Of a stretch of 19,480 nt of DNA, positions 8,168-9,793 are shown piece by piece. The notes below the pieces were generated by a model. The model did not search any database, was not told the DNA's origin, and saw only the letters and a program-made list of their open reading frames with translations. Every line of letters starts with the position of its first letter. The first letter of the stretch is position 1. Position numbers and translations under genes: made by a program. This DNA is from a virus (Duplodnaviria; Heunggongvirae; Uroviricota; Caudoviricetes), in the IMG/VR virus record IMGVR_UViG_2648501130_000004. One strand, written 5' to 3'.

Positions 8168-8731
8168 ATGAGGCTAACCGTGGGTAAGTATCACTGGAAA
8201 GTAGAAAAACAGCCTGAGTGGTACGTGAAAGCTGTCAGAAAAACTATCGCAGCGTTGCCGGGTGGTTACGCTGAAGCAGCTGACTGGCTGGATGTAACAG
8301 AGAACGCATTATTTAACCGCCTTCGTGCCGATGGCGATCAGATTTTCCCGCTGGGATGGGCAATGGTTTTACAGCGCGCGGCTGGCACTCACTACATTGC
8401 GGATGCTGTCGCACAGTCTGCTGGTGGGGTGTTCGTATCGCTTCCTGAAATTGAGGAAGTAGAGAACGCCGATATAAACCAGCGCCTGCTGGAAGTCATC
8501 GAACAGATCGGGAATTACTCAAAGCAGATTCGTTCGGCAATCGAAGATGGGGTCGTGGAGCCACACGAGCAGACAGCAATTAATGATGAGTTGTATCTGT
8601 CAATTTCGAAGCTCCAGGAGCATGCAGCACTGGTCTACAAAATCTTTTGCGCTCCAGAAAAGAGTGACGCCCGCGAGTGTGCAGCTCCGGGCGTCGTGGC
8701 GTTTTGTGTCTGTGGAGAAACTAACGCATGA
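8168..8731 (+). CDS. CII-like / YdaT-like early regulatory protein (family assignment tentative)
   Basis: 187-aa ORF immediately downstream of the YdaS-like cro, the usual position of YdaT/CII-type proteins; alternative GTG start at 8180. Confidence 0.55.
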   Translation: MRLTVGKYHWKVEKQPEWYVKAVRKTIAALPGGYAEAADWLDVTENALFNRLRADGDQIFPLGWAMVLQRAAGTHYIADAVAQSAGGVFVSLPEIEEVENADINQRLLEVIEQIGNYSKQIRSAIEDGVVEPHEQTAINDELYLSISKLQEHAALVYKIFCAPEKSDARECAAPGVVAFCVCGETNA

Positions 8732-9564
8732 ACAGTTTAACGGCAAATAACCGTTTGTCGCAACAGCTGGTGGTCAGCGTCGCTGAACACCTGTTGTTAC
8801 GGCATGAATGCAGATTACCAAATCACCTGGCTGTAAGTAACCACAGAGAACTTTACCTGACTGTGGGGGGCGAGTTGTGCAGGAACTTAACCGCTGGTTT
8901 CGTGACGGAAGAGGGCTTTATGTCCATGTTATTCGTTGGGAGCCAGAAACACAGCGCGTTATCTATCTTCGCAAAGACTACCCGCATGAGTGCTTTAGTC
9001 CTTTGTGGAAATTCAGGCGTGATTTTGTTGAGTGTGAAGGACCACCAGCACATTGATTCTGCCATTCCGGGACGTTACACTGTTCAGGCACCTTATAAAG
9101 CGGGTGTCGGGATTGGCGTCCTGGAATTGCATACGGCGACAATTGGCGCGTTAGCGTCTTTTTTGTTGCTACAACTCAGCTATACCCAAATTATGGTGGG
9201 CTGGGTGGGGGCACCGAAAGGTGCGCCGGTTTCCGTATGCGCCGGTTACGCCAACCCTGCTCAGTTCACCACCAGCGAAATTGGCGTTTCCGGTGGTGGA
9301 AGTTATCCATTGCATACGGAGGCTGCCATCATGGCTACTGTCCCAGCCCTCTCTCGTCTGAATGATGAAGACTTACATAAACTCAGTTATGTAACAACTG
9401 CACTACGTGCTCTGCGCAAGGTAACTCTTTCGGATCCGCAGGCGCATCAGGTTTTGGTAGAAACCCTTCTTAACTTGCAGGCTGAACGTATTCGTCTGGC
9501 GGATAAGGCTAATTTTCATATTCACCGTCTCCTGAATATCAGCGGAGGGCATCGTCATGCTTAA
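8728..9564 (+). CDS. Hypothetical phage protein (278 aa), no recognised domain
   Basis: Only long ORF across this stretch; ATGA overlap with upstream stop and ATG overlap with the downstream ORF. Confidence 0.55.
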   Translation: MNSLTANNRLSQQLVVSVAEHLLLRHECRLPNHLAVSNHRELYLTVGGELCRNLTAGFVTEEGFMSMLFVGSQKHSALSIFAKTTRMSALVLCGNSGVILLSVKDHQHIDSAIPGRYTVQAPYKAGVGIGVLELHTATIGALASFLLLQLSYTQIMVGWVGAPKGAPVSVCAGYANPAQFTTSEIGVSGGGSYPLHTEAAIMATVPALSRLNDEDLHKLSYVTTALRALRKVTLSDPQAHQVLVETLLNLQAERIRLADKANFHIHRLLNISGGHRHA

Positions 9565-9793
9565 TCCGTTGATCCTCAATATTTGCCGTTTGCTTCAGCG
9601 TAAAAAAACATCAATTCCTACAGTTGGGCAGTGGTACACCACACCTGCAGGGCATGTTCTACGTGTTAGCCTGGTTGACCGTGAATGCCAGAAGGTGATT
9701 TGTGAACCGCTGGGCCGTAATTACCGCGTCAGTATGCCGCTTATAGCCTTTCGCTCCGGAAAAAACATGAAGCATCTCGGAGGTGCAGCATGA
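9557..9793 (+). CDS. Small hypothetical protein (78 aa)
   Basis: ORF translationally coupled on both sides (overlapping start/stop codons). Confidence 0.45.
   Translation: MLNPLILNICRLLQRKKTSIPTVGQWYTTPAGHVLRVSLVDRECQKVICEPLGRNYRVSMPLIAFRSGKNMKHLGGAA

Follow-up and report, generated by a model that had tools for sequence, protein, structure and literature searches.

A candidate counterpart of the phage P4 immunity region within a 278-codon reading frame of a lambdoid phage

Introduction

What is the function of the 278-codon open reading frame (ORF) that lies between the regulatory genes and the replication genes in the early region of a lambdoid phage? The DNA in question is a 19,480-nucleotide (nt) stretch from a tailed phage (Caudoviricetes; IMG/VR record IMGVR_UViG_2648501130_000004), referred to here, over its whole length, as the window. 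A preliminary description had proposed that three ORFs in this region are coupled by overlapping stop and start codons, and both the coordinates and the overlaps were confirmed. The ORFs at 8168-8731 (187 amino acids, aa), 8728-9564 (278 aa), 9557-9793 (78 aa), and 9790-10608 (272 aa) are all present. As read from the sequence, the ATG at 8728-8730 overlaps the TGA at 8729-8731 (ymfL to the long ORF), the ATG at 9557-9559 sits 5 nt ahead of the TAA at 9562-9564, and the ATG at 9790-9792 overlaps the TGA at 9791-9793 (78-aa ORF to the replication gene).

The same description had found no recognisable domain in the 278-aa protein, which proved incorrect. The ORF has a single Pfam match, to Phage_ASH (PF10554; 61 bits, cut-off 26), and two RNA genes with Rfam matches lie inside it. 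The Phage_ASH match spans residues 117 to 209, or nt 9076 to 9354, which is the same DNA as both RNA genes. The middle "gene" is probably the lambdoid counterpart of the eta/kil-seqA-CI immunity region of phage P4, a region related to c4-icd-ant of P1 and to isrK-orf45-anrP of Salmonella Gifsy-1. It is a composite regulatory locus that belongs to a known type: no component is new in kind, and the records of Shigella phage SfV (orf37) and Escherichia phage Ayreon already label the long ORF "immunity region."

Results and Discussion

An IsrK-C4 module aimed at a nested ribosome-binding site

The features within the long frame are as follows.

8728..9564, + strand: long "eta-like" reading frame of 278 codons, ATGA-coupled to ymfL; it spans the DUF4222 gene, the promoter, both RNAs, their targets, and the nested gene
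8877..9056, + strand: DUF4222 gene (PF13973), 59 aa, GTG start after a G-rich Shine-Dalgarno (SD) sequence; Pfam 9.5e-14, 51.1 bits (cut-off 27); phrog_1343 1.1e-36
9053..9081, + strand: putative sigma-70 promoter inside the long ORF; TTGATT 9053-9058, 17 nt, TACACT 9076-9081, with +1 at about 9088
9088..9164, + strand: IsrK / P4-seqA-type small RNA; Rfam RF01394, 58.9 bits (gathering 50), E 1.4e-10, full length
9189..9276, + strand: C4 / P4-CI-type antisense RNA; Rfam RF01695, 80.7 bits (gathering 45), E 9.5e-15
9281..9322, + strand: downstream target region with exact complementarity to C4; a1 TTGGCGT 9281-9287, b1 GCATACGGA 9312-9320
9331..9564, + strand: nested 77-aa gene forming the 3' end of the long frame, with a strong SD (GGAGG 9318-9322) and an ATG at 9331

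The C4 RNA carries two segments that match its targets exactly. Segment b2 is the loop of hairpin 2 (TCCGTATGC, 9232-9240), and a2 is the adjoining unpaired junction (ACGCCAA, 9248-9254). The a2 segment pairs with TTGGCGT at 9113, within isrK, and again at 9281, downstream of C4; TCCGTATGC pairs with GCATACGG(A) at 9129 in isrK and at 9312. The downstream b1 site overlaps the SD of the nested 77-aa gene. Within isrK, the two sites complementary to C4, which have the character of target mimics, are a' (TTGGCGT, 9113-9119) and b' (GCATACGG, 9129-9136). When folded alone, C4 adopts the structure of its family with the b2 and a2 segments unpaired (-45 kcal/mol, z -3.87), and compensatory changes were found in 18 of its 27 base pairs across 24 homologues.

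The isrK gene is closed by an intrinsic terminator identified in a terminator scan (stem at 9145-9158 followed by a U-run, to 9164). Position 1 of the Rfam isrK model aligns to 9088, 7 nt past the -10 hexamer of the putative promoter. The promoter matches the consensus at 8 of 12 positions, just under the threshold of a simple promoter scan; the -35 TTGAtt and the -10 TAnnnT correspond to conserved columns upstream of isrK in 70 diverse loci. It would be the counterpart of PLE of P4 and of PisrK of Gifsy-1. A weak match to another Rfam family, c4-a1b1 ("a1, b1 targets of C4 antisense RNA"), was found at 9075-9127, overlapping the promoter and the 5' part of isrK, with a score (20.4 bits) below the gathering threshold of 46.7.

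Exchangeable RNA specificities on a single phage backbone

Comparison with other loci indicated how the pairing segments evolve. Module-like sequences were present in 315 phage records and in 2,236 of 5,426 complete Escherichia coli genomes. When 120 viral contigs were gathered by the conserved core of hairpin 2 (about 12 matches, located in unrelated long ORFs and lacking loop/target complementarity, were left out as chance), at least 12 variants of the C4 loop were found, each with an exact complement 82 to 87 nt downstream that is followed by GGAGG and ATGGCTAC. A second copy of the loop complement usually lies about 96 nt upstream.

Five prophages (L023, L098, L012, L104, and L125) were 98 to 99.8% identical to the window in the flanks, comprising ymfL and DUF4222 on one side and the 77- and 78-aa genes on the other, but only 80 to 91% identical in the module itself (9041-9330). 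In these five prophages isrK b', the C4 loop, and b1 were all switched in concert relative to the window, so that one phage backbone carries three RNA specificity classes:

Window: isrK b' GCATACGG; C4 loop CGTATGC; b1 at the SD GCATACGGAGG
Variant 2: isrK b' GTTATCGG; C4 loop CGATAAC; b1 at the SD GTTATCGGAGG
Variant 3: isrK b' GATCAAGG; C4 loop CTTGATC; b1 at the SD GATCAAGGAGG

Taken together with the fold and the exact complementarity, the coordinated exchange of b', loop, and b1, the loop/target pairs among the contigs, and the compensatory base pairs bear the marks of a functional antisense RNA whose specificity can be exchanged. The RNA switch is very likely to be real and to be aimed at the nested ribosome-binding site (RBS). 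We infer that the variable b sites represent immunity specificities. The occurrence of different RNA specificities in near-identical prophages predicts a second, RNA-based layer of hetero-immunity or of cross-talk between satellites and helpers.

Comparison with P4, P1/P7, Gifsy-1, and related loci

In P4, Rfam places isrK (the seqA of the literature) at 8692-8615 and C4 (the CI RNA) at 8507-8420, both on the minus strand and both inside a 214-codon ORF (8812-8168). Within this 214-aa eta ORF, Phage_ASH covers exactly isrK plus C4, and the terminal part is the 65-aa Kil, which starts MATT; the nested gene of the window starts MATV. An internal ATG of the P4 long ORF, the eta start, forms ATGA with the stop codon of the upstream vis gene. 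Termination ahead of the P4 replication genes is CI-dependent and of the Rho type, and CI is processed by RNase P / PNPase. In the account of P4 given in PMC10111431 (citing Forti 1999), a constitutive promoter lies inside eta, CI-seqA interactions end its transcript early, and processing of that transcript yields CI; Kil is a shortened form of Eta; and full-length Eta, whose translation prevents termination, is made only from an upstream promoter, coupled to the alpA homologue.

The window resembles the P4 immunity region in the order and strand of isrK/seqA and C4/CI inside a long ORF that matches Phage_ASH, in the internal promoter (PLE in P4, putative in the window), in a second target of the antisense RNA farther downstream (seqC in P4, a1/b1 in the window), in a nested terminal gene starting MAT with an RBS downstream of the antisense RNA, in the ATGA junction with an upstream regulator gene, and in the replication genes downstream. 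Unlike P4, which is a satellite, the window derives from a lambdoid phage with a protein CI/Cro switch, and the CII-like YmfL takes the place of Vis as the upstream partner. A spacer of 24 nt separates isrK from C4 in the window, versus about 107 nt in P4. The nested product of P4 is the Icd-like Kil, and the 77-aa product of the window is not Icd/Kil-like. In the window, the long frame also overlaps a DUF4222 gene. Protein similarity between the window ORF and Eta is confined to the stretch that encodes the RNAs.

The ImmI regions of P1 and P7 (c4-icd-ant) provide another comparison. There, C4 RNA is processed from the transcript that it regulates, a/b complementarity is found both upstream and downstream, and the downstream copy lies over the RBS of a short leader gene, with additional genes coupled to it. 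The window shares the C4-family RNA, the two-part a/b complementarity, and a target over the RBS of a small leader gene, but it has no Icd homologue and no antirepressor, and what follows is the set of replication genes.

In its structure, IsrK is homologous to seqA (PMC4825925). In Salmonella Gifsy-1 (isrK-orf45-anrP), a CI-like RNA, STnc1160, lies downstream of IsrK, and control operates via translation of an upstream ORF (Hershko-Shalev et al. 2016, PMC4825925). Gifsy-1 and the window have in common an IsrK-family small RNA with its own promoter (putative in the window) and terminator (leaky in Gifsy-1), as well as a C4-like RNA downstream; dependence of downstream expression on coupled translation of an upstream ORF would be a further likeness under the scheme proposed below. 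The Gifsy-1 module, unlike that of the window, is next to antQ and controls the antirepressor-like AnrP, and its IsrK has been demonstrated to act as an activator in trans. The module of the window is not adjacent to genes for AnrP or AntQ.

Some lambdoid prophages carry P4-like IsrK-C4 systems (Barquist et al., PMC3632133). SfV orf36 to orf39 and Ayreon genes 0040 to 0043 represent the same locus as that of the window; these records hold coding sequences only and lack the RNA genes, the promoter, the nested gene, and the DUF4222 ORF. In other lambdoid phages, too, the module occupies this position between a CII-like gene and O, in the order CI, Cro, CII-like, module, small ORF, O. A P4-style RNA switch stands directly ahead of the replication genes in lambdoid phages of the SfV/e14 type, atop their protein CI/Cro switch. 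The E. coli prophage e14 (ymfK-ymfT-ymfL-ymfM-oweE) has the same repressor, cro-like, and ymfL genes as the window, with 88% identity over ymfL, and an ATGA-coupled frame (YmfM) after ymfL that overlaps a DUF4222 ORF. Unlike the window, e14 is without the isrK-C4 module and the 77- and 78-aa genes, and its DUF4222 ORF abuts a replication-gene remnant, oweE.

A proposed mode of action

By analogy with P4, P1, and Gifsy-1, the following scheme may be proposed. In the lysogen, the rightward promoter PR would be silent and the internal promoter active. Most transcripts would end as IsrK, and read-through would give C4, which would pair with a1 and b1, occlude the nested RBS, and leave the nested gene untranslated. 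The untranslated RNA would be open to premature (Rho-type) termination, and the replication genes would remain off. The mimic sites of IsrK would titrate C4 and set the threshold. Upon infection or induction, transcripts from PR would be translated from cro through ymfL into the long frame by means of the ATGA coupling, and ribosomes crossing the terminator, C4, and a1/b1 would render these transcripts insensitive to the switch. The nested gene is itself chained by overlapping stop and start codons to the 78-aa ORF and the replication initiator gene.

If ribosome transit protects the PR transcripts in this manner, the long frame would be kept open for transit and not for its amino acid sequence. 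It is reasonably likely that such transit translation is the reason that the long ORF exists.

Is the long frame a protein, a by-product, or a path for ribosomes?

Several results bear on what is conserved in the long frame. Column entropies at the three codon positions of this frame in the 70 diverse loci were 0.61/0.66/0.63 over isrK and 0.51/0.57/0.55 over C4, i.e., there was no codon periodicity. By this measure and by the compensatory changes in C4, the central "Ash" part evolves as RNA rather than as protein. Structure prediction, which the preliminary description had recommended, was carried out on the 278-aa ORF as a single sequence with AlphaFold2 (AF2). Confident helices were predicted only at residues 209 to 268, which belong to the nested gene (predicted local distance difference test score, pLDDT, of 55 to 79), and the pLDDT was below 50 for residues 1 to 208. 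The retrievable homologues were all at least 99% identical, and the run was therefore made without an alignment; thus, the model provides weak, supportive evidence only.

The frame is nevertheless open more often than the alternatives. Among 24 module variants that were pairwise less than 93% identical, the long frame carried no stop codon between the -35 hexamer and the nested ATG in 20, versus 2 and 0 of the 24 in the other two frames. Stop trinucleotides numbered 9 in the long frame versus 90 and 55 in the others. Upstream of the RNAs, the chance of finding the long frame open was 0.03 over the DUF4222 gene under synonymous recoding and 0.066 over a 146-nt spacer. An ATGA junction with the preceding gene is also seen for the long ORF in P4-like elements (with a vis/alpA-like 88-aa gene, GCATGATG), in ymfL-type prophages (GCATGAAC), and elsewhere; its recurrence in unrelated contexts makes it more than a local accident. 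The simplest reading of these results is that selection acts on the translatability of the long frame and not on the peptide.

One alternative is that the switch is real but that ribosomes never translate the long frame ahead of 9331. In that case the true genes would be ymfL, DUF4222, isrK, C4, and the 77- and 78-aa ORFs, and the 278-aa ORF would be an artefact whose openness is a by-product of RNA conservation. The preliminary description had also raised the possibility of a frame artefact, and a part of this idea stands: the central portion is conserved in the manner of RNA and not of codons, and RefSeq/PGAP annotation of a near-identical prophage, which lists ymfL, the DUF4222 gene, and an "ash family protein" from GTG 9019, drops the first 97 codons and contains no 278-aa ORF. 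The DUF4222 frame is also far better conserved than the frame that overlaps it (64% identity without gaps between the window and e14, versus 33% with gaps for the long frame), AF2 confidence is low over residues 1 to 208, and some homologues have an in-frame stop or are called pseudogenes. However, the frame appears to be kept open. Stops are depleted approximately 6- to 10-fold in the long frame only, with the variable loops and the spacer included, and the two probabilities above combine to about 0.002 (0.03 x 0.066) for a frame that is open all the way from the ymfL stop to isrK. The repeated ATGA coupling in unrelated contexts also argues against an artefact, as does the reported translation, with a regulatory consequence, of the P4 eta frame in the account cited above. 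We consider this alternative unlikely, although it deserves to be taken seriously.

A quite different alternative is that the 278-aa ORF encodes a genuine regulatory protein of the "Ash family" or Bro network, for example an antirepressor-like protein, whose amino acid sequence matters and to which the RNAs are secondary. The 61-bit Phage_ASH match, the thousands of database entries named "ash family protein," the inclusion of Phage_ASH among Bro-network domains, and the fusion of the frame to Rha domains in relatives are all consistent with this possibility, and YmfM of e14, which is homologous to the first 90 residues at 33% identity, was reported to be a division inhibitor when overexpressed. 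However, the Phage_ASH coordinates coincide with isrK plus C4 in both the window and P4, the third-position excess is absent in that frame, and AF2 finds nothing foldable ahead of residue 209. In the Rha fusions, the domain lies beyond the nested start, and that start is preceded by an SD of its own; the N-terminal similarity to YmfM is limited to conserved DUF4222 nucleotides. A protein of this kind is therefore quite improbable.

The P4-like interpretation, with the long frame serving ribosome transit, has difficulties of its own. Four of the 24 variants (L041, L055, L086, and, in that frame, L011) are without the open frame, and in one E. coli element "ash" is a broken pseudogene, so that transit translation cannot be a strict requirement. 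The depletion of stops could stem in part from shared ancestry of the conserved RNA sequence. The long frame overlaps the well-supported DUF4222 gene for 180 nt, and translation of both frames would be unusual. The "ash family protein" of PGAP begins at GTG 9019 rather than at 8728, and the single-sequence model weakens the structural argument. Promoter activity, RNA processing, termination, and long-frame translation in this phage are what we infer from its likeness to the systems discussed above. The nested product is not Icd/Kil-like, and the cargo thus differs from that of P4 and P1. Finally, the genes downstream have strong SDs of their own, so that control of the replication genes would require transcription termination.

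It is possible, although we offer the suggestion tentatively, that Phage_ASH and the "ash family protein" are not a protein domain at all but the translation shadow of two RNA genes in a stop-free transit frame. Ribosomes in transit would melt the terminator, the antisense RNA, and the target of the latter. In this lambdoid lineage, one piece of DNA would then hold three superimposed layers, namely, RNA genes, a frame for transit, and a DUF4222 gene in another frame, and the switch would gate the replication genes with exchangeable specificity classes. Thousands of prophage entries from E. coli, Shigella, and Salmonella name this stretch "ash family protein," "antirepressor," "Rha," or "peptidase" and leave out both RNAs as well as the nested gene and the DUF4222 gene. 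The main value of the present analysis is a correction of annotation, together with the testable idea of a frame that is maintained for ribosome transit.

The nested gene and its exchangeable cargo

The sequence that follows C4 is variable: it comprises 77 codons in the window, a 181-aa Rha regulator or a 120-aa ORF in other loci, and 64- to 65-aa Icd/Kil-like proteins in P4-like elements. In many relatives (for example, at L005:1229-2377 and L003:2077-3228) a gene with a Rha domain (Phage_pRha) replaces the sequence after the nested start. Annotators have fused leader and Rha into proteins of 382 to 383 aa named "Rha," "antirepressor," or "peptidase," in which the first approximately 200 residues are the leader/RNA region and the Rha domain begins only past the nested SD and ATG. 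The preliminary description had noted that some lambdoid phages carry replication or host-takeover functions at this place. The position is a slot for host-directed or regulatory cargo, as seen from the Rha regulator of these relatives and the Icd/Kil-type division inhibitor of P4.

In relatives of the nested 77-aa gene, codon position 2 is the most conserved. Its product had no match in Pfam or NCBIfam, PHROGs gave no function, and word-indexed and full HMMER searches returned only relatives from the same context and a few repeat proteins. P4 Kil matches phage_ICD_like of NCBIfam at 1.6e-21, whereas the 77-aa ORF of the window does not match this family. The 77-aa product is thus a predicted helical orphan, and by analogy with icd, kil, and orf45 we take its main role to be that of a gated leader cistron; it may also have a host-directed activity.

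The next gene in the chain is the following.

9557..9793, + strand: 78-aa ORF; phrog_1153 3e-42; SD GGAGG 9544-9548; runs over the end of the nested gene and forms an ATGA junction with the replication gene

The 78-aa ORF had no Pfam match, including to DUF4222, and neither it nor the 77-aa ORF had a match to Icd, ANT, Rha, or Bro domains in Pfam or NCBIfam. Pairwise similarity between the 78-aa ORF and the DUF4222 ORF was weak (E 0.013). The 78-aa ORF may be a very distant DUF4222-like paralogue.

The DUF4222 gene and YmfM of e14

The DUF4222 gene lies wholly within the long ORF, in another frame, and is annotated by PGAP. When the codon positions of variable sites over 8732-9053 were compared among close relatives, they tilted to the DUF4222 frame over 8880-9053, in a comparison that was underpowered at 18 sites per block.

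An unannotated 59-codon DUF4222 ORF also overlaps ymfM (b1148) of e14 in another frame, at NC_000913.3 1204001-1204180 in E. coli K-12 MG1655 (L007:5002-5181, + strand). This ORF matches DUF4222 in Pfam at 8.6e-19, has a strong SD (AAGGAGA) 8 nt before its TTG start, and has a stop codon that overlaps the ATG of oweE. YmfM itself, annotated as "cell division inhibitor YmfM," had no family match. In the ymfM preprint, in which YmfM was reported as a division inhibitor on overexpression, the cloned ymfM ORF holds the entire DUF4222 domain, and a frameshift control was not found there. Therefore, filamentation could be assigned to either YmfM or the DUF4222 product. If Phage_ASH is a translation shadow, YmfM would be the e14 remnant of the leader frame, and its reported phenotype might be due to the unannotated overlapping DUF4222 product.

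In a P4-like or satellite-like element of E. coli strain 12690 (L006:2270-5152), a broken "ash" pseudogene over isrK-C4 is followed by an Icd-like gene, and a DUF4222 gene is ATGA-coupled to a gene for a RepA-family helicase. DUF4222-type small genes recur directly upstream of replication genes in this element, in e14, and possibly, as the 78-aa ORF, in the window.

YmfL and the layout of the early region

The module stands in an early region with the following further genes.

7171..7845, - strand: CI-type repressor (YmfK-like, LexA/S24 peptidase); Pfam Peptidase_S24 1.5e-26; labelled repressor/cI in Ayreon and SfV
7936..8136, + strand: Cro-like helix-turn-helix protein (YmfT / YdaS-family helix-turn-helix), first gene of the rightward operon; phrog_35 3e-15
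8168..8731, + strand: YmfL, phage-186-CII-like (CP76) regulator; Pfam Phage_CP76 54.8 bits (cut-off 26), 1.2e-14; NCBIfam phage_reg_YmfL 170.3 bits (cut-off 90), 1.9e-50
9790..10608, + strand: replication initiator (O/DnaD-like), 272 aa; phrog_270 3e-88; Pfam HTH_36 1.8e-11, DnaD_N 3.6e-05

This is a standard lambdoid early region, with CI, Cro, and the CII-like YmfL followed downstream by an O/DnaD-like initiator. The repressor gene marks the divergent PRM/PR region, and the ORF at 9790..10608, recorded as a replication protein in SfV and Ayreon, is the first replication gene 3' of the switch. From 7900 to 10000 the window is 100% identical at the nucleotide level to Ayreon and 96.5% identical to SfV. 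A search of the region for tRNA and tmRNA genes found none.

The coding nature of ymfL is clear, with variable sites at the three codon positions numbering 20/16/82 among 44 relatives. Its true start is probably GTG 8180 (183 aa) rather than ATG 8168; GAGG lies 6 nt upstream of this GTG, which is the start in the SfV, Ayreon, and PGAP annotations.

The 187-aa protein had been described as YdaT/CII-like. The CII-like part of this description agrees with the Phage_CP76 and YmfL matches above their cut-offs; the YdaT part was dropped, as the protein had no Pfam match to YdaT_toxin at E<=0.1. That the cro-like and 187-aa genes might form a YdaS/YdaT-type toxin-antitoxin pair, with the downstream ORFs as unrelated passengers, was suggested by a match of the cro-like protein to YdaS_toxin of Pfam, which scored 25.1 bits and thus fell under the cut-off of 30, and by the name that PGAP gives this gene ("YdaS family helix-turn-helix protein"). 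With a CP76/CII-like, YmfL-equivalog protein in the place of YdaT, a gene order that is the standard CI, Cro, CII, and no filamentation on overexpression of e14 ymfL, such a pair is very improbable.

A minus-strand, terminator-like site at 8492-8479 was considered as a candidate for an oop-like RNA and rejected; its stem is weak, and the number of such sites is within chance.

Two further observations concern the surrounding DNA. Over the final 4 kb of the window (about 15100-19480), the arrangement of ORFs departs from what is annotated at the equivalent coordinates of Ayreon; minus-strand ORFs, for example, are found at 16528-18021 where Ayreon has plus-strand methylase, holin, and lysin genes. 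Judged from ORF layout against annotation, the window may come from a related mosaic prophage and not from Ayreon itself. Inside the O/DnaD-like gene, direct repeats of about 29 nt lie at 10055-10083 and 10121-10149, accompanied by partial copies (window positions of about 10050-10160). These repeats look like iterons, as in lambda, where ori lies within O.

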